A stretch of DNA of 6,147 nucleotides, from positions 1 to 6,147 of IMG/VR virus record IMGVR_UViG_3300020041_000070. One strand, given 5' to 3'. The stretch comes from a virus. Positions within the stretch are counted from its first letter, which is position 1; each line of letters starts with the position of its first letter. The position numbers were made by a program, and so were the translations under genes. Positions 1 through 6,147 of this stretch are shown here, piece by piece. A model generated the notes under the pieces. That model was not told the DNA's origin and searched no databases. It saw only the letters and a list, made by a program, of their open reading frames with translations.

Positions 1-53
1 ATTTCCAAGTATATGCTGTTCAGAACTTGGATAGAAATGGTTTACCTTATTAA
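1..53 (+). CDS. VP1: 3' end of the major capsid protein VP1 (partial; duplicate of 6027-6079)
   Basis: Reads ...FQVYAVQNLDRNGLPY then stop TAA at 51-53. Identical to the end of the 4346-6079 ORF. Confidence 0.9.
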   Translation, partial: FQVYAVQNLDRNGLPY

Positions 54-121
54 TTTGTGCTGTTATGAGAAATTTTGCCTATAAGAACCCCGATTATATT
101 AAAAATGAGGTTGTTCCCGAG
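1..121. repeat. Terminal redundancy: exact copy of 6027-6147. This is the signature of a circular genome linearised with overlap; unit length 6026 nt.
   Basis: Base-by-base comparison shows the first 121 nt are identical to the last 121 nt. The repeat carries the VP1 3' end, its stop codon and the start of the next gene, so it is not a biological LTR. Confidence 0.97.
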
Positions 122-508
122 TTGGTTGAGGAACATCCGTGCTATCAACAGTCTGTATACGATACTGTTATGTATGATACGTCTTCTGACGGTGATTTGA
201 TTCAAAATGATATGACGCAGATTCTCCTTAATCAGGAAAAATATCGTCGTCTTCTTGGTGACATGAATGTTCAGAATATTCTTTCCCAGATGCATCCTAC
301 TCAGTCTACCGTTATGGACGGTATGACTGATGAGCAGCGCTTTGATTGTGTTATCTCCCGGCATTGTCAGACTATGTCGGAGCGACAGGCTGTTTTACAG
401 CATCTGGCTATTGAAAAGTCTGAGCTTACTAAGTATGCCCAGGAAATGTTGGCAGAGCAGCAGTCAGCGCCCGATAAATCGCCCGCCCCTGACGCCGGTG
501 CTCAATGA
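65..508 (+). CDS. Hypothetical 147-aa protein between VP1 and VP2; possibly an internal scaffolding (VP3-like) protein
   Basis: The ORF shows the same T3 codon bias as the capsid genes. It starts 11 nt after the VP1 stop, and its stop overlaps the VP2 start (ATGA at 505-508). The product is acidic with a Pro/Ala-rich tail (SAPDKSPAPDAGAQ). Size and position resemble gokushovirus VP3, but I recognise no diagnostic motif. Confidence 0.75.
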   Translation: MRNFAYKNPDYIKNEVVPELVEEHPCYQQSVYDTVMYDTSSDGDLIQNDMTQILLNQEKYRRLLGDMNVQNILSQMHPTQSTVMDGMTDEQRFDCVISRHCQTMSERQAVLQHLAIEKSELTKYAQEMLAEQQSAPDKSPAPDAGAQ

Positions 509-1620
509 GATTCTATGAGATTGGAGAAAGCCCCTTAATGGGGCACTCCGAAAAACATATTGCTCCGCTTGTTCTTGGCGGTATTATTGCCGCCGGTGCT
601 TCACTTGCCGGTAATGCCATTGGTGCTTCTTCGCAGAATAAGACCAATCAGACTAGCGTTGATATTAATCGTGAGAATAACGCGTTTAATGCCCATCAAG
701 CACAGATTCAGCGTGATTGGCAGGAAAAGATGTGGGGAATGAACAATTCTTACAATTCCCCCAATGCCATGATTTCTCGTGGCTTGAATCCGTTTGTTCA
801 AGGTTCTGCTGCCATGGCTGGTTCTAGATCCCCTGCTTCTGGTGGTTCATCTGCTTCAGCTTCTTCCGCTCCTAGCTTGCAGGCTTTCCGTCCCGATTTC
901 TCTGATGTCGGTTCTGCTCTTGCTTCTATGGCCCAGGCTCGTGCTGCTATGCTTGATGCTGAACAGAACGCTGCTCTTACGCCATATAAGATTGACCAGA
1001 TTCGTGGTGCTACTGATTACCGTAACATTGGTATTGGTGAGTCCGGTTACTGGAATGCTTCTTCTGGTAGACGTTCTGCTCTGTTGGACCAATCCAAGGA
1101 GTACCAGGAGCTTAAGAATATGGAGTTTGCCGGTCGTCTTACGTCTGCACAGGAATCACAGATTTTGCTTGATTCTCAAGCACAGCAGATATTGAATAAG
1201 TATCTTGATGAGCAGCAGCAGGCTGACCTGTTTATTAAAGGCCAGACTTTGGCTAATTTGTATGCCCAAGGTGCTCTTTCTGAAGCTCAATATAAAAACC
1301 AGATGGCCCAGGCTGTTAAGACTTCCGCTGAAACGAACGGTATTCGCATTAGTAATAAGATTGCTCAGCAGACCGCTGATTCACTGATTTATGCTAACAT
1401 TCAGGCTAATCGTGCCCGTGGTTTGTCTTCTCTATGGGATTCTAAGAATACCAATGTTCTTAAGAACATAGAATACTCTAAGGATAAGGCCTTACGTGAT
1501 TATTATAAATGGTCTTCTAAACAGAAACAGAAGGATGTCAATTCTTATGAGCTGCGTAATGCCATTGATTATGGCACCCGTATATTCCAAGGTGTCGGTA
1601 ATTCTGTTGGCCGTAAGTGA
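505..1620 (+). CDS. VP2: Minor capsid / DNA pilot protein VP2 (phiX174 H-like), 371 aa
   Basis: An N-terminal Gly/Ala-rich hydrophobic segment (IAPLVLGGIIAAGASLAGNAIGAS) is followed by the block NAFNAHQAQIQRDWQEKMWGMNNSYNSPNAMISRGLNPF, which is typical of microvirus pilot proteins. Next come a Ser/Ala-rich linker and a long Gln/Ala-rich, probably coiled-coil, C-terminal half. The start could alternatively be the ATG at 538. Confidence 0.85.
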   Translation: MRFYEIGESPLMGHSEKHIAPLVLGGIIAAGASLAGNAIGASSQNKTNQTSVDINRENNAFNAHQAQIQRDWQEKMWGMNNSYNSPNAMISRGLNPFVQGSAAMAGSRSPASGGSSASASSAPSLQAFRPDFSDVGSALASMAQARAAMLDAEQNAALTPYKIDQIRGATDYRNIGIGESGYWNASSGRRSALLDQSKEYQELKNMEFAGRLTSAQESQILLDSQAQQILNKYLDEQQQADLFIKGQTLANLYAQGALSEAQYKNQMAQAVKTSAETNGIRISNKIAQQTADSLIYANIQANRARGLSSLWDSKNTNVLKNIEYSKDKALRDYYKWSSKQKQKDVNSYELRNAIDYGTRIFQGVGNSVGRK

Positions 1621-1679
1621 ATCTATTCTCTTTCCTCCCCTCGAAGCGGTGGAAAATTTTTTGTACTTCAGGACTAGAA

Positions 1680-1726
1680 GCCCATCGCGGCGTTTGAGCG
1701 ATATACACCCGCCGCCCGCGTAGGGC
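1680..1726 (+). other. Imperfect GC-rich stem-loop (GCCC/GGGC plus CGCGG/CCGCG arms)
   Basis: GCCC (1680-1683) pairs with GGGC (1723-1726) and CGCGG (1686-1690) pairs with CCGCG (1716-1720), separated by a 2x2 internal loop. An alternative pairing is GCGGCG 1687-1692 with CGCCGC 1710-1715. Confidence 0.45.
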
Positions 1727-1739
1727 CTGGTCGAAAAAT

Positions 1740-1784
1740 GGAGCGGAGCGACTTCCTTATAGGAGCGCCCCGCTCCGGTATTTT
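1740..1784 (+). terminator. Long GC-rich hairpin (1740-1776) followed by GGTATTTT; candidate intrinsic terminator of the capsid transcript and/or an ssDNA structural element
   Basis: GGAGCGG (1740-1746) pairs with CCGCTCC (1770-1776), GCG (1748-1750) with CGC (1766-1768), and TCCT (1754-1757) with AGGA (1761-1764), leaving loop TAT. A T4 run sits at 1781-1784, but it is not immediately adjacent to the stem. Confidence 0.35.
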
Positions 1785-1801
1785 AGCACGGAGTGCGCAA
1801 A

Positions 1802-1824
1802 GGCAAGACAGTTTCTGCCTTGCC
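1802..1824 (+). other. Hairpin GGCAAGACAG-TTT-CTGCCTTGCC (10-bp stem with one mismatch)
   Basis: GGCAAG/CTTGCC and CAG/CTG pair, with a single A/C mismatch and a TTT loop. Confidence 0.6.
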
Positions 1825-1863
1825 GTGTCTATACACCTTTGTATACATTCACTTGTCAATTAA

Positions 1864-1889
1864 GCGAAGCCCCTAGTTGTGTGCGAAGC
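1864..1889 (+). repeat. Two copies of GCGAAGC (1864-1870 and 1883-1889), the stable DNA mini-hairpin heptamer
   Basis: Both are exact heptamers with starts 19 nt apart, in non-coding ssDNA-phage sequence. Confidence 0.7.
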
Positions 1890-1890
1890 A

Positions 1891-1913
1891 AATCCGAGTT
1901 ATCCTCTCGGATT
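1891..1913 (+). other. Perfect 8-bp hairpin AATCCGAG-TTATCCT-CTCGGATT
   Basis: The exact reverse complement arms are 1891-1898 and 1906-1913, with a 7-nt loop. No T-run follows (CTCCCCCTC instead). Confidence 0.65.
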
Positions 1914-1990
1914 CTCCCCCTCTTGTCTATAAACGCACAACTCACACTCCATCATAAATGGTCCTCTCCCCACAATTCCTGGAGGCAAAA

Positions 1991-2021
1991 TTTGGAAATA
2001 CGAAAAAAACTCATACCTTTG
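1991..2021 (+). promoter_or_regulatory. Bacteroidetes-type sigma-A promoter: -33 TTTG (1991-1994), 19-nt spacer, -7 TAccTTTG (2014-2021)
   Basis: It matches the two-part Bacteroides consensus TTTG ... TAnnTTTG. It lies about 50 nt upstream of the first gene of the 2072-4329 block, and an AT-rich leader follows. Confidence 0.5.
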
Positions 2022-2071
2022 CACCATGTAGAAGTTACAATTATTATTAATGTTTTAAAATTATTACCGTT

Positions 2072-2269
2072 ATGCAAAGATTTATTATTTCAGTTAAAGA
2101 CAGAAACACTGGTCATGATGTTTTTTCGCCTTATGTTGTTAATTCTCTCGATGGCCTTGGACGCTATTGTGAACGTTTTTGTCCATTGGGTTTTATCGTT
2201 GTTGTGGACTCGATTAAAGAGGAGAATGATTTTGTTGAACTTAAAAATCAAAGTGATAATGAAAAGTAA
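2072..2269 (+). CDS. Hypothetical 65-aa protein (orphan; first gene after the predicted promoter)
   Basis: Strong T3 codon bias (ttt att att ... gtt gtt aat tct ...) matches the confirmed genes. The product is acidic and has no motif I recognise. Confidence 0.7.
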   Translation: MQRFIISVKDRNTGHDVFSPYVVNSLDGLGRYCERFCPLGFIVVVDSIKEENDFVELKNQSDNEK

Positions 2270-2342
2270 TAATATTTGGAAAATTGTGATTGGAGCTGTT
2301 TCGGCAGCTCTTGGTTATATTCTTAATGCTATTGGATTATGA
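2259..2342 (+). CDS. 27-aa single-pass transmembrane micro-protein (MKSNNIWKIVIGAVSAALGYILNAIGL); candidate holin-like or membrane-active lysis partner
   Basis: The ATG at 2259 overlaps the last 11 nt of the upstream ORF, and the stop TGA (2340-2342) overlaps the peptidase ATG (2339) as ATGA. The 2270-2338 segment is closed in the upstream gene's frame. In this frame it shows the genome's T3 bias (agt aat aat att ... gct gtt ... gct ctt ggt tat att ctt aat gct att). Alternative in-frame starts exist at 2226 and 2115/2118. Confidence 0.55.
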   Translation: MKSNNIWKIVIGAVSAALGYILNAIGL

Positions 2343-2647
2343 ATAGTGCCCTTATGGATTTTCTTGAGCATCTGTTGTCTTTTAACTTGCATTTTACGAT
2401 AACAAGTGCTAAGCGCTCTATTGCTGAGAATAAGGCTGCCGGTGGTGTCCCTAATTCTCAGCATCTGTTTGGAGAGGCTATTGATATTAAGCCTTATGGC
2501 TCTACTACTTATAGTCGTTTGCTTGAGCATATCCATAGTTATTCGGATAATACTCATGTATTTGACCAATTGATATTGTATCCTACGTTTATCCATATTT
2601 CGTTTGGTGGCCGTAATCGTCATCAGGTGATTTATAAATGTAAATAA
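2339..2647 (+). CDS. Minimal peptidase M15-like (zinc D-Ala-D-Ala carboxypeptidase/endolysin fold) cell-wall hydrolase, 102 aa
   Basis: The motif ITSAKRSIAENKAAGGVPNSQHLFGEAIDI matches the M15 signature (SxxR...N...GG...SxH-x6-D). H42 is at 2462-2464 and D49 at 2483-2485. A third His lies in FIHISF (H86, 2594-2596), where the family usually has HVD. There is no N-terminal signal peptide. Confidence 0.8.
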   Translation: MNSALMDFLEHLLSFNLHFTITSAKRSIAENKAAGGVPNSQHLFGEAIDIKPYGSTTYSRLLEHIHSYSDNTHVFDQLILYPTFIHISFGGRNRHQVIYKCK

Positions 2648-2649
2648 TT

Positions 2650-4329
2650 ATGAAGTTTTCTCCTGATTTGTTTAAGGCTGTTGACCATTGTCAGCATCGT
2701 TCGTTTATTACGAACAAGTATACCGGTGCACGCATTGCCGTTGATTGTGGACAGTGTGATTACTGTATCCACAAGAAAGCTAAAAAGGCTTCTATGCGTG
2801 TAAAAACCGCTGGAAGTTCTTTTAAGTATTCTTATTTTGTAACTCTTACTTACGACAATGCGCATCTTCCTCTTATGAATTGTAGTGTTCTCCATAGTGA
2901 TTATGAGGATGCCTTAGGCATTTCAGGAGATATTCATTTTGGCAATGAACATCATCAGTATATCCCTGTTTCTGAATATCAATGTGGTGATAACTCCATG
3001 CTGCGTCATATATTCTTCGTTCAGGTACAAGGCACTGTGCCGTTTGACCGTGAAGTTAAGGAATATGTCCCTGTTAAGGATAATTGGTTTCTTAGTATGG
3101 ACGCTATTCGTAGTTTTATCAATAAGACGCAAGCTGTTGACAAAACGGATTATCCCGCTTCTGCACAATACGGTCGTGATAACCTTATTCCCTTCCTGAA
3201 TTATGTTGATGTTCAGAATTATATTAAACGCTTACGTAAACATTTGTCTTTGAAATTAGGTTCTTATGAAACGTTACATTTTTACGCTGTGGGTGAGTAC
3301 GGACCCGTGCATTTCCGCCCGCATTATCATCTCTTACTATTCACAAACTCGGACAAGGTCGCCGAGGTTCTACGATACTGTCACGATAAGAGTTGGAAAC
3401 TCGGTCGTTCAGATTTCCAACGTTCCGCTGGTGGAGCTGGCTCGTACGTTGCGAGTTACGTTAACAGCTTGTGCGCTTCTCCCCTCCTATATCGCTCATG
3501 CCGCGCGTTTAGACCCAGGTCGCGAGCATCTGTTGGATTCTTTGAAAAGGGCTGCGACTTTGTGGAAGATGAAGACCCTTATGCGCAAATTGAGCAAAAA
3601 ATCGATTCTGTCGTTAACGGAAGAGTCTATAACTTCAATGGCGTCAGTGTTCGGTCAACTCCGCCCATGTCGTATATCCGTACCTTATTGCCCCGATTCT
3701 CGTCTGCTCGCAATGACGATGTTGCTGCGATTGCTCGAATTCTTTGCGCTGTGCATCGGACGCCACAGAGAATTGCAAGGTTCGGATTCATTGATTACGG
3801 ACAAGGCTCAGTTTTAGCTCTTGTTCGTACTTATTATCAATATCTTAAGGTTAACTCTATTCTTACCGATGATGACAAGATTATATTACATGCCTCCCGG
3901 TGTCTTACCAGGTTTGTTAACTGTTCTAGTGATGTCGATACTGAATCTTTCATTAATAAACTGTATCGGCTGTTCCTATATGTCTATAAGTTCTTCCGTA
4001 ACTGGCATCTCCCTCTCTTTGGCTCTGATATTAGTGCTTACTCCGGACGTATTATGTTTATCATTAAAACGGGCATAGAGTATGAGAAGAAAGCGGATTA
4101 TGAAAGTTTACGAAATGCATATGACCTTCGTTCCCAATACTCAAACATATCGGATTGTATGTTTGCGTTGCCTCAGAACGGACAGGAGATTGATGTCCTG
4201 CAAGACGTTTCAAGTGAAACGCTTCAACTTCTTGAGCAACTCCGATACCGTAGTTCGACATTCTGTCGTGATATGATTAAGCATAAGCAGCTTAATGATG
4301 CTAACAATATATTCAATCGTATGGTTTAA
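2650..4329 (+). CDS. VP4: Replication initiator protein VP4 (HUH rolling-circle endonuclease, phiX174 A-like), 559 aa
   Basis: There is an N-terminal Cys cluster CGQCDYC (C33 at 2746, C39 at 2764). RCR motif 1 is FVTLTY (2836-2853). Motif 2 is HUH, H-Y-H in PHYHLLLF (3322-3330). Motif 3 is a double tyrosine, SYVASYVNS (Y266 at 3445-3447, Y270 at 3457-3459), closely resembling the phiX174 A-protein YVAKYVNK. Confidence 0.95.
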   Translation: MKFSPDLFKAVDHCQHRSFITNKYTGARIAVDCGQCDYCIHKKAKKASMRVKTAGSSFKYSYFVTLTYDNAHLPLMNCSVLHSDYEDALGISGDIHFGNEHHQYIPVSEYQCGDNSMLRHIFFVQVQGTVPFDREVKEYVPVKDNWFLSMDAIRSFINKTQAVDKTDYPASAQYGRDNLIPFLNYVDVQNYIKRLRKHLSLKLGSYETLHFYAVGEYGPVHFRPHYHLLLFTNSDKVAEVLRYCHDKSWKLGRSDFQRSAGGAGSYVASYVNSLCASPLLYRSCRAFRPRSRASVGFFEKGCDFVEDEDPYAQIEQKIDSVVNGRVYNFNGVSVRSTPPMSYIRTLLPRFSSARNDDVAAIARILCAVHRTPQRIARFGFIDYGQGSVLALVRTYYQYLKVNSILTDDDKIILHASRCLTRFVNCSSDVDTESFINKLYRLFLYVYKFFRNWHLPLFGSDISAYSGRIMFIIKTGIEYEKKADYESLRNAYDLRSQYSNISDCMFALPQNGQEIDVLQDVSSETLQLLEQLRYRSSTFCRDMIKHKQLNDANNIFNRMV

Positions 4330-4345
4330 TTTTAATTAATTAATT

Positions 4346-6079
4346 ATGAGTGATTTTAATCCTTTAGACCGAGCTAAAATTAATACCCATCGCTCGTCTT
4401 TCGACTTAAGTTCGAAAAAACTGTTTACCGCTAAAGTTGGAGAAATTCTTCCTTGTTATTGGCAGATTGCTATTCCTGGTAACAAGTATCGTATTTCTTC
4501 TGACTGGTTTACTCGTACTGTTCCTGTGAATACGGCTGCCTATACCCGTATCAAGGAATACTATGATTTCTATGCTGTGCCGTTGCGTTTGATTTCTCGT
4601 GCGCTTCCTCAGGCTTTTACTCAGATGACGGATTATATGACTAGTGCGTCTAGTTCTACAGAGAATTCATCTGCGCTTACTTCTGTTCCTACTGTTACCC
4701 AGAGCTTGTTTAGTCTGTTTCTTCAGACGGCTAATTCTCAGGACCAGCCTAATACTCGTGACGATGCAGGCCTTCCTGTTGTCTATGGTGCTTGTAAGTT
4801 GTTGGACATGCTTGGTTATGGTTCTATGATTTCATCTACTAATACAGGTAAGGCTGCTATCACTAAGTCATATCTGGGTGTTGATGGCCTCGGTGACTCT
4901 GATAATCCCTTGGTTTATCAGACATCTCAGACTGTCAGTGCTCTTCCGTTCCTTGCTTATCAGAAAATCTATTATGATTTCTTTAGTAACTCTCAATGGG
5001 AAAAGCATCGTGCTTATTCATATAATGTAGATTATTGGTCTGGTGTTGGTAATATTGGATTGGTTAGGTCTATGGTTGAGCTGCGCTATGCGAACTATCC
5101 TAAAGACTATTTTATGGGTATGCTGCCTTCTTCTCAATATGGTTCGGTAGCCGTTTTGCCCGGTATTTATAACCCCTTAGGATCTTCTAATTCTGTTGTT
5201 GCTGTTGCTGATTCTTCTGTGGATTATGTTGTTAATCCTTCTTCTTCTACTTCGGTTGTTGCTTCTGGTTCGTCTTCTTCTCAACGTGCTGTTTCTCTTA
5301 ATTCTGACCTTTCCGCGCTTTCAATTCGTGCCACAGAGTACTTGCAGCGATGGAAAGAGGTAGTACAGTTCTCTAGCAAGGACTATTCAGACCAGATGGC
5401 AGCCCAGTTTGGTGTTAAAGCTCCCGAATCCATGGGTAATCATGCTCATTATATTGGAGGTTGGTCTAGTGTAATCAATATCAATGAAGTGGTTAATACC
5501 AATCTTGATACCGATTCTTCACAGGCTTCTATTGCCGGTAAAGGTGTATCCAGTAACTCCGGCCATACTCTTACTTATGACTGTGGTGCTGAACATCAAG
5601 TTATTATGTGTGTCTATCATGCCGTACCTATGTTGGATTGGAATTTGACAGGCCAGGCTCCCCAATTGACTGTTACTGCTATATCTGACTTTCCGCAGCC
5701 CGCATTTGACCAGCTTGGTATGCAGTCTGTTCCTGCTCTTAATCTTCAGAATAACCCCGGTCGTAATGTTTCCGGTTCTTTAGGTTATAATCTGCGCTAC
5801 TGGCAGTGGAAATCTAACATTGATACCGTTCATGCCGGATTCCGTGCCGGTGCTGCTTATCAGTCATGGGTTGCGCCTCTTGATGGTTGGCAGGTATTGA
5901 CTTCCGCTGGTGCTTGGTCTTATCAGTCCATGAAGGTTCGTCCCCAACAGTTGAACTCTATTTTTGTTCCCCAGGTTGATTCTGACAATTGTTCGGTTGC
6001 ATTTGACCAGTTATTGTGTAATGTTAATTTCCAAGTATATGCTGTTCAGAACTTGGATAGAAATGGTTTACCTTATTAA
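4346..6079 (+). CDS. VP1: Major capsid protein VP1 (phiX174 F-like jelly-roll), 577 aa
   Basis: The N-terminal block RSSFDLSSKKLFTAKVGEILPCYWQIAIPGNKY is typical of the microvirus major capsid (FDLS...G.L.P...PG). Size fits, T3 bias is strong, and the C-terminus ends NLDRNGLPY. Confidence 0.95.
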   Translation: MSDFNPLDRAKINTHRSSFDLSSKKLFTAKVGEILPCYWQIAIPGNKYRISSDWFTRTVPVNTAAYTRIKEYYDFYAVPLRLISRALPQAFTQMTDYMTSASSSTENSSALTSVPTVTQSLFSLFLQTANSQDQPNTRDDAGLPVVYGACKLLDMLGYGSMISSTNTGKAAITKSYLGVDGLGDSDNPLVYQTSQTVSALPFLAYQKIYYDFFSNSQWEKHRAYSYNVDYWSGVGNIGLVRSMVELRYANYPKDYFMGMLPSSQYGSVAVLPGIYNPLGSSNSVVAVADSSVDYVVNPSSSTSVVASGSSSSQRAVSLNSDLSALSIRATEYLQRWKEVVQFSSKDYSDQMAAQFGVKAPESMGNHAHYIGGWSSVININEVVNTNLDTDSSQASIAGKGVSSNSGHTLTYDCGAEHQVIMCVYHAVPMLDWNLTGQAPQLTVTAISDFPQPAFDQLGMQSVPALNLQNNPGRNVSGSLGYNLRYWQWKSNIDTVHAGFRAGAAYQSWVAPLDGWQVLTSAGAWSYQSMKVRPQQLNSIFVPQVDSDNCSVAFDQLLCNVNFQVYAVQNLDRNGLPY

Positions 6080-6090
6080 TTTGTGCTGTT

Positions 6091-6147
6091 ATGAGAAATT
6101 TTGCCTATAAGAACCCCGATTATATTAAAAATGAGGTTGTTCCCGAG
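6091..6147 (+). CDS. 5' end (19 codons) of the 147-aa gene; duplicate of 65-121 caused by the terminal overlap
   Basis: Identical sequence to 65-121 (MRNFAYKNPDYIKNEVVPE). Confidence 0.75.
   Translation, partial: MRNFAYKNPDYIKNEVVPE

Follow-up and report, generated by a model that had tools for sequence, protein, structure and literature searches.

A short M15 peptidase and an overlooked 27-residue membrane peptide as a candidate two-gene lysis module in a gut microvirus

The microvirus phiX174 lyses its host with a single gene, E, whose product inhibits MraY, and does so without a muralytic enzyme. In this study, we ask what a gene for a predicted cell-wall peptidase is doing in another microvirus, and by what route its product, made without an export signal, might reach the wall. 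The gene lies in IMG/VR virus record IMGVR_UViG_3300020041_000070, of which positions 1 to 6,147 (6,147 nucleotides [nt], hereafter the window) were analysed; a first-pass annotation, made from the sequence alone, had singled it out as a minimal M15-type peptidase of 102 amino acids (aa) encoded next to the replication gene rep. Immediately ahead of it we identified an unannotated open reading frame (ORF) for a 27-aa hydrophobic peptide, referred to here as the mini-ORF. We propose, with a probability of roughly 55%, that positions 2259-2647 form a minimal two-gene lysis module in which a holin-like peptide is paired with a cytoplasmic endolysin (coordinates are collected in Table 1).

The mini-ORF is a real, strongly constrained and strictly syntenic gene that routine annotation has missed. 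Of 89 related loci, 87 contain it, and the ATGA junction that joins it to the peptidase gene recurs at 87/89 peptidase starts. It is read in a different frame from the peptidase and overlaps its neighbours by 11 and 4 nt only. The core of the peptide, NIWKI[VI]IGA[VI]SAALGY[IV]LN[AS]IGL, remains near-invariant while the identity of the accompanying peptidase drops to 65% or less, and such variation as there is in the hydrophobic core falls mostly at wobble positions (codon-position entropy 0.32/0.008/0.92). By the Nei-Gojobori method, the ratio of non-synonymous to synonymous change (dN/dS) in the mini-ORF is 0.083, with a proportion of synonymous differences (pS) of 0.45; the same nucleotides give 1.14 and 7.7 when read in the other two frames, the higher value being that of the peptidase frame. 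For the peptidase gene, dN/dS is ~0.31, probably a slight overestimate, given that the sequences were compared without gaps and a few of them contain a short insertion; the mini-ORF is therefore the more strongly constrained of the two. A tblastn search recovered the mini-ORF in 35 phage records, all of them microviruses, and always directly 5' of the peptidase. The reciprocal test was a scan with a degenerate, back-translated DNA pattern (116 viral contigs, 80 of them retrieved), in which the peptidase followed the mini-ORF in 80 of the 81 occurrences on the retrieved contigs. The arrangement extends to a divergent clade of short-form peptidases that are ~45% identical to the one in the window (loci L008, positions ~4247-4336, and L099-L104). 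There, a 29-aa peptide, MKSETKSKIWSAIIAAAVSLLTSIAQIFS, which by its sequence looks homologous to the 27-aa peptide, occupies the same place, with a changed junction, in which 3 nt separate its stop codon from the ATG of the peptidase and both are read in one frame. Two other explanations for the conservation of the mini-ORF were ruled out, namely that it is a DNA or RNA element, by the concentration of variation at wobble positions and the lack of an Rfam match, and that it encodes a DNA-binding peptide like phiX174 J, by its having just two basic residues and an uninterrupted hydrophobic run of 19.

In the 2.8-kDa peptide, two lysines precede the 19 hydrophobic residues, which have a Kyte-Doolittle hydropathy of 2.01 over 19 aa. 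Helical-wheel projection puts G12, G19 and G26 on the same face as S15, A16 and N23; a face composed of a glycine zipper plus Asn is characteristic of helices that self-associate or line pores. The mini-ORF is annotated in none of the ten GenBank relatives that we fetched, nor is it mentioned in the literature that we found. In Dulem viruses 226, 238 and 243, the GenBank coding sequence (CDS) of the peptidase is extended 63 nt upstream, across the mini-ORF; the frame of this extension has a dN/dS of ~7.7 and is broken by stops in most relatives, so that the start codon has probably been misannotated, which obscures the mini-ORF. In the window and in ~40% of relatives, an upstream in-frame ATG (window positions 2226-2258) would lengthen the product to 37-38 aa (MILLNLKIKVIMKSNN...). 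Since this extension overlaps the upstream gene, ORF65, and is not conserved elsewhere, we take 27 aa to be the conserved length. Starts that read MMK or MMMK occur in a few relatives.

Table 1. Positions of the features discussed, in window coordinates unless a locus label is given.
Feature	Position	Strand	Remarks
Mini-ORF, 27 aa, unannotated; candidate holin-like membrane partner	2259..2342	+	MKSNNIWKIVIGAVSAALGYILNAIGL; basic N-terminus and one 19-aa hydrophobic helix
ATGA junction	2339..2342	+	mini-ORF TGA over peptidase ATG; arrangement typical of translational coupling
Short-form Peptidase_M15_3 / MEROPS M15A-type zinc peptidoglycan peptidase, putative endolysin	2339..2647	+	102 aa, 11.6 kDa
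S23-A-K-R26 (S-x-x-R motif)	2405..2416	+	R26 falls on the Arg of the 1lbu motif GGFRS
H42-x6-D49, first two predicted Zn ligands	2462..2485	+	aligned with H66/D73 of T5 endolysin and H154/D161 of 1lbu
H86-I-S88	2594..2602	+	H86 is the predicted third Zn ligand; clade-invariant
ORF65, 65 aa, function unassigned	2072-2269	+	3' end overlaps mini-ORF start by 11 nt; MQRFIISVKDRNTGHDV...IVVVDSIKEENDFVELK...
DNA pilot protein	505-1620		
REP_ORF2-G2P replication initiator (rep, VP4)	2650-4329		
Phage_F capsid protein	4346-6079		
Extended peptidase CDS	L005 3935-4309, L006 3985-4359, L007 3998-4372		Dulem viruses 226, 238, 243

The second component of the proposed module, the peptidase, is securely a member of the M15A/LAS family, in an N-terminally truncated form. 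On rereading, the ORF stands at 2339-2647 and the numbering of S23, R26, H42, D49 and H86 is correct; it begins with ATG, ends with TAA and encodes MNSALMDFLEHLLSFNLHFTITSAKRSIAENKAAGGVPNSQHLFGEAIDIKPYGSTTYSRLLEHIHSYSDNTHVFDQLILYPTFIHISFGGRNRHQVIYKCK. Its stop lies 2 nt ahead of the rep start at 2650, which confirms the position directly 5' of rep that had been described for it. The assignment of the first-pass annotation to the M15-type zinc peptidases was borne out by profile and by fold. The product matched Pfam PF08291 (Peptidase_M15_3) with 39.8 bits, above the curated gathering cut-off of 23.2 (E=5.6e-10), and PHROG 894, 'endolysin', with E=6.6e-16. Because sequence searches of the PDB gave only marginal matches (1lbu, E=0.06; the T5 endolysin, E=1e-3 with a profile), structure prediction was needed. 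An AlphaFold2 model based on an alignment with 33 homologues was confident (predicted local distance difference test score [pLDDT] 84.9; predicted template modelling score [pTM] 0.75), and a Foldseek search of the PDB placed 1lbu (probability 1.00), the T5 endolysin, VldE and VanY at ranks 1 to 4, followed at lower ranks by Sonic hedgehog and LdcB, all of which are LAS/M15 folds. The best structural neighbours are 1lbu, the zinc D-Ala-D-Ala carboxypeptidase of Streptomyces albus G (M15A), and 2mxz, the L-alanoyl-D-glutamate endolysin of T5 (M15C). These share ~18-24% identity with the peptidase at template modelling (TM) scores of 0.43-0.47, and their H-x6-D ligands and upstream Arg align with it residue by residue; 1lbu has an additional N-terminal peptidoglycan-binding domain. 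Among predicted viral structures (BFVD), there were 39 matches at E<=1e-3, with TM-scores of up to 0.82; those that bear names are all cell-wall hydrolases, mostly M15/M15A peptidases, and four come from microviruses (Microvirus mar50, mar52, mar54 and mar59). Muralytic activity in vitro has been demonstrated for one purified PF08291 endolysin, that of Burkholderia phage ST79 (PMC5025407). We consider the peptidase very probably a muralytic endolysin as well.

The first-pass annotation had regarded two canonical positions of the active site as deviant, with SAKR in place of SGYR and HIS in place of HVD, and had suggested a divergent enzyme or one of altered specificity. We therefore built an alignment of 122 diverse representatives drawn from the 588 clusters (50% identity level) that an exhaustive HMMER search had yielded at E<=1e-3. 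The residues of the active site stood as described, with S23, R26, H42, D49 and the distal H86 at the positions given for them and conserved across the alignment: H42 and D49 are each kept in 122/122 representatives, H86 in 117/122, and S23 and R26 in 120/122 each, and all five residues are invariant across close relatives. By analogy with the aligned enzymes, H42, D49 and H86 should bind zinc, and R26 and S23 should position the stem peptide. An internal H64-x-H66 was dismissed as the 'HxH' motif of LAS enzymes, as its columns vary freely (E, A, R, K and others) and H86 is conserved instead. A D76-Q77 pair is also conserved (99/122 and 112/122) and, judging from this pattern, may contribute to catalysis. 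The supposed deviations did not survive the comparison. Two residues after H86, Ser is found in 94 representatives, Gly in 15 and Asp in 2, such that H-[IV]-S is the majority state, annotated endolysins included. At position 24, the G of SGYR, Gly occurs in 89 representatives and Ala in 17; at position 25, the Y of SGYR, Tyr occurs in 73, Phe in 30 and Lys in 5. Two endolysins of double-stranded DNA (dsDNA) phages read the same way, that of Salva with SAFRS...WTHVSF and that of Bm1 with SGYRS...WVHISF. HIS is therefore the norm of the subfamily and SAKR a tolerated variant, and neither backs altered specificity. The rarity of Lys at the Tyr/Phe position (5/122), the occurrence of Ala at the Gly position in 17/122 and an N-terminal truncation that could alter substrate contacts leave some room for an unusual substrate. 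Position 25, however, drifts among K, R, F and L within the clade while S23 and R26 are kept, and so is not a constrained determinant of specificity, and we regard altered specificity as quite improbable. As for the bond that is cut, a D-Ala-linked cross-bridge is possible by analogy with M15A enzymes.

What distinguishes this form of the peptidase, and makes it 'minimal', is by its sequence a truncation of ~35 aa at the N-terminus rather than any change of motif. The match to PF08291 covers positions 29-107 of 108, so that ~28 N-terminal positions of the profile are absent, and only 18 residues precede query position 19, compared with a median of 51 in homologues. The latter are usually 125-155 aa long and carry ~35 extra N-terminal residues (a 'HFTLxEF...' segment); among the clusters at the 50% level, only ~10 are full-length short forms of ~100 aa. 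Many other microvirus copies have 143-158 aa, as against ~100 aa in this clade, and the dsDNA-phage endolysins have ~35-40 more N-terminal residues than the microvirus peptidase. If active, an endolysin of 102 aa would stand at the small end of the range of its family. The loss of a quarter of the domain, evident in the Pfam coverage and in the 18 versus 51 N-terminal residues, might also be taken to mean that the protein is a catalytically dead remnant that binds the wall or acts as a decoy. We give this the least credence of the alternatives considered, since hundreds of sequences show no change at the residues predicted to bind metal and substrate, dN/dS is ~0.3, and the short form is predicted with confidence as a compact domain and persists in several microvirus clades.

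Comparison with tailed phages lends further weight to the role of the peptidase as an endolysin. Its nearest dsDNA-phage relatives, with 40-46% identity in the core, are free-standing endolysins of ~140 aa encoded in lysis cassettes and belonging to the same family: 'peptidase M15A' of ST79 (149 aa), gp29 of Salva and the endolysin of Bm1. They share with the microvirus enzyme the motifs S-x-x-R, SQH-x-x-G-x-A-x-D, FDQ and H-[IV]-S and, like it, are single-domain globular proteins without a signal peptide, encoded beside genes for membrane proteins. The cassette of Stenotrophomonas phage Salva consists of endolysin, holin/antiholin, holin, i-spanin and o-spanin, and that of Burkholderia phage Bm1 of holin, a hypothetical ORF and endolysin. 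In the microvirus, the only comparable neighbour is the 27-aa mini-ORF, as a putative holin. M15A domains are also built into large tail and baseplate proteins of tailed phages, the BFVD matches including both gp5-OB-fold fusions and proteins of 800-1,200 aa, indicating that the fold serves entry too, and the peptidase could in principle be a virion-associated enzyme that opens the wall during DNA delivery. That is highly improbable in our estimation, as the nearest homologues are the free-standing endolysins just described, and the peptidase gene adjoins rep, away from the structural genes for VP1 and VP2, and is coupled to that of a membrane peptide. In addition, the T=1 capsids of microviruses deliver their DNA via a pilot protein, and we know of no enzyme that is packaged in them.

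How would a cytoplasmic endolysin reach the wall? The peptidase has no signal peptide, as had already been remarked: no stretch of 19 aa exceeds a Kyte-Doolittle hydropathy of 0.87, acidic residues (D7, E10) mark its N-terminus, and a stop codon lies in frame 5 codons upstream of its ATG, which rules out a longer N-terminus. It has no hydrophobic N-terminal segment of the kind found in endolysins with a signal peptide or in signal-anchor-release (SAR) endolysins. A transmembrane helix fused to the peptidase, whether as a SAR domain or by way of a frameshift or a longer start, was likewise discarded in view of the different frames, the upstream stop, the lack of a slippery site and the dN/dS of 7.7. 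The overlap of the mini-ORF stop with the peptidase start makes it probable instead that both products are synthesised jointly, at a constant ratio. In the lysis module that we propose, the peptidase would be made in the cytoplasm, while the peptide would lodge in the inner membrane, its basic N-terminus facing the cytoplasm, and self-associate through its glycine-zipper/Asn face. Accumulated peptide would then permeabilise or depolarise the membrane, as the equivalent of a holin, and allow the peptidase to reach the wall, where it would cut the peptide part of murein late in infection and so weaken the sacculus. From the sequence features described above we infer the enzymatic activity, the topology and oligomerisation of the peptide and the peptide-driven release of the enzyme. 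That the 27-aa peptide is the release factor of the peptidase has, in our judgement, an even chance of being correct.

The comparison with known holins cuts both ways. As with the holin S105 of lambda and the pinholin S68 of phage 21, the gene for a small membrane protein lies directly 5' of the endolysin gene and overlaps it, one face of the helix is made up of small residues (Gly/Ala/Ser), and the partner endolysin lacks a signal. The product is small, has one predicted transmembrane domain and is encoded next to the endolysin gene, all of which are used to recognise holins. The mini-ORF differs from holins in having 27 aa, one helix, no hydrophilic C-terminal tail, no similarity to PHROG holins and no consistent dual-start motif. 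Whereas the cassettes of dsDNA phages combine holins of classes I-IV, of 100+ aa, with spanins, this genome offers a 27-aa peptide and no spanin. Another likeness lies within the microviruses, where the active part of the phiX174 lysis protein E is a single N-terminal transmembrane helix (Roux 2012, PMC3394797). Protein E, however, has 91 aa and is overprinted in gene D, whereas the mini-ORF occupies its own stretch of the genome and is coupled to a peptidase, and there is no sequence similarity between the two.

Several observations weigh against the lysis module. At 27 aa, the peptide is much shorter than any holin known to us, and it is doubtful that so short a peptide could form a hole large enough for a folded enzyme of 11.6 kDa. 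It ends in ...LNAIGL, inside the hydrophobic helix, without the charged hydrophilic C-terminal tail of holins, and a PHROG search with it returned no known holin family (the best match, at E=0.47, was a family without an assigned function). Among small + strand ORFs of this T-rich genome, 4/12 reach the same hydropathy; hydrophobic mini-ORFs thus arise by chance, and only constraint and synteny count as evidence. No outer-membrane (spanin-like) component was identified in this genome. On the side of the enzyme, TM-scores against the PDB in the Foldseek search were only 0.37-0.48, full activity is not guaranteed with ~28 Pfam positions absent, and the searched literature contained no biochemical study of any microvirus M15 peptidase, in agreement with the earlier remark that the enzyme has not been characterised biochemically in this family. 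Long-form microvirus peptidases (bajarodmic, Dipodfec) and mar63 have no obvious equivalent of the mini-ORF. Finally, one contig (L280, positions 3111-3251; IMGVR_UViG_3300045988_000047) has an intact mini-ORF (MKRNNIWKIVIGAVSAALGYILNAIGV) without a peptidase, ~60 nt from VP4. This contig is partial or chimeric, as it starts with a Nextera adapter (GTCTCGTGGGCTCGGAGATG) and lacks VP1 residues 152-294. A screen for small hydrophobic ORFs in other microvirus peptidase lineages was uninformative, because T-rich genomes yield them by chance.

Some of these points would also suit a different division of labour, in which the peptidase is an endolysin and the peptide acts independently of it, as a single-gene lysis protein (an amurin-like inhibitor of a membrane step in wall synthesis), in superinfection exclusion, or as an anchor for replication or assembly; access of the peptidase to the wall would in that case depend on membrane failure with some other cause. 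The lack of likeness to known holins and of a charged tail, the solitary mini-ORF of L280 and the peptidase lineages that seem to do without a mini-ORF all favour such a role, as does the stronger constraint on the peptide (0.08 vs ~0.31), which would be expected of a protein with a specific target, and single-transmembrane lysis proteins are an established strategy of microviruses, phiX174 E being the example (Roux 2012, PMC3394797). Against it stand the strict gene order and the start/stop junction shared with the peptidase (87/89 and 80/81), an order that survives in the divergent clade in spite of its remodelled junction, and the fact that none of the 35 phage records has the peptide without the peptidase. 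Moreover, a cytoplasmic endolysin without an export signal needs a partner that breaches the membrane. Independent action is, on balance, unlikely, and we continue to favour the pairing of a holin-like peptide with the endolysin.

The surroundings of the proposed module are those of a microvirus genome, as established by Pfam matches to Phage_F (capsid) and REP_ORF2-G2P. A 121-nt direct repeat at the window termini (1-121 and 6027-6147) implies a circular genome of ~6,026 nt that was assembled with an overlap, and circularity in turn places ORF147 (65-508) straight after VP1. ORF65, the mini-ORF, the peptidase gene and rep follow one another in this order and are tightly packed. ORF65 is kept in 10/10 GenBank relatives, in which it is labelled 'hypothetical protein'; it has no Pfam or PHROG match and no hydrophobic segment. 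Between the pilot gene and ORF65, a stretch of ~450 nt (1621-2071) contains no convincing conserved ORF and no Rfam match, and a scan of 1600-2100 detected no inverted repeats of at least 10 nt. Its GC content is higher toward the 5' end, and it could contain an origin or promoters; small hypothetical ORFs are annotated in this region in some relatives. In Microvirus mar63 (L093, positions 1028-1204), a 58-aa ORF that is not hydrophobic precedes a 101-aa short-form peptidase with an ATGA overlap, and the rep CDS annotated in that record overlaps the peptidase by ~120 nt.

The window shares 85% nt identity with Microviridae sp. MG945488, from dog faeces, and represents an Alpavirinae-like gut microvirus with a host that is probably in the Bacteroidales. 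In a scan that took a single genome for each bacterial species, the best matches to the peptidase were at most 41% identical and ~25/31 came from Bacteroidales; no microvirus genes were found near these cellular or dsDNA-prophage homologues. Host assignment by way of integrated copies was dropped, since only such distant (<=41%) homologues were available. One of them, in a Paludibacteraceae metagenome-assembled genome (L183, positions 3750-5945), is a long-form M15_3 peptidase of ~150 aa (...YDQLILYPTFVHIS...). It is encoded between a 170-aa protein with multiple transmembrane segments and an N-terminally anchored protein of 198 aa. By analogy, this locus resembles a dsDNA-prophage lysis cassette, the sort of source from which the microvirus gene could plausibly have come. 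Roux et al. (2012; PMC3394797; PLoS One 7:e40418) inferred that the M15_3 peptidases of 11 Microviridae (6 Alpavirinae and 5 Gokushovirinae) had been acquired horizontally from phages associated with the host; they tied the Alpavirinae copies to Bacteroidetes and proposed an endolysin role. The contexts of the homologues agree with this scenario and suggest a Bacteroidales host, without proving it.

An M15 peptidase in a microvirus is thus not new in itself, having been known since 2012 and being present in GenBank annotation. The view that such genes occur only sporadically in metagenome-assembled microviruses must be given up, given the 11 cases described in 2012, ~85 GenBank records and cultured phages. 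The peptidase matches 133 phage records in GenBank, ~85 of them microviruses and many annotated 'peptidase', and 1,736 clusters in a large protein collection; the top 120 clusters are 82-97% identical to it, all with a precomputed PF08291 match and many on contigs of ~6 kb, and IMG/VR holds copies that are 99% identical. Most Occultatumvirinae carry M15 peptidases, cultured roseophages among them (PMC11499846), as does the isolate vB_RpoMi-Mini (PMC9865509). The microviral M15_3 peptidases of the earlier report (PMC3394797) and of the Dulem, bajarodmic and mar viruses in GenBank have in common with ours the PF08291 domain, the link to Bacteroidales and the proposed endolysin role, and close GenBank relatives have the peptidase in the same place by rep, many under the name 'peptidase' and up to 86% identical (MG945488). 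The 'unknown ORF' noted beside the peptidase in that report is a different and larger gene (153 codons in one example) and not the 27-aa ORF. What appears to be new, as far as sequence comparison goes, is the truncated form of the enzyme together with a hidden membrane mini-gene, in a cassette resembling a holin-endolysin pair in a single-stranded DNA (ssDNA) phage.

Altogether, routine annotation misses a real gene at this locus, and in three GenBank species over-extends the peptidase CDS across it. At 84 nt, the mini-ORF falls below the usual 90-nt minimum of gene callers, and similar overlooked genes may precede endolysins elsewhere. The mini-gene provides a concrete and cheaply testable candidate for the export step, and with it a lead on host lysis by microviruses other than phiX174. 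We tentatively suggest, with somewhat less than even confidence, that an abundant clade of gut microviruses lyses Bacteroidales with a 27-aa, single-helix peptide that is translationally coupled to a truncated M15A endolysin. If so, some ssDNA phages would have a miniature holin-like partner of their own beside an endolysin borrowed from tailed phages, and a lysis strategy distinct from that of phiX174 E.

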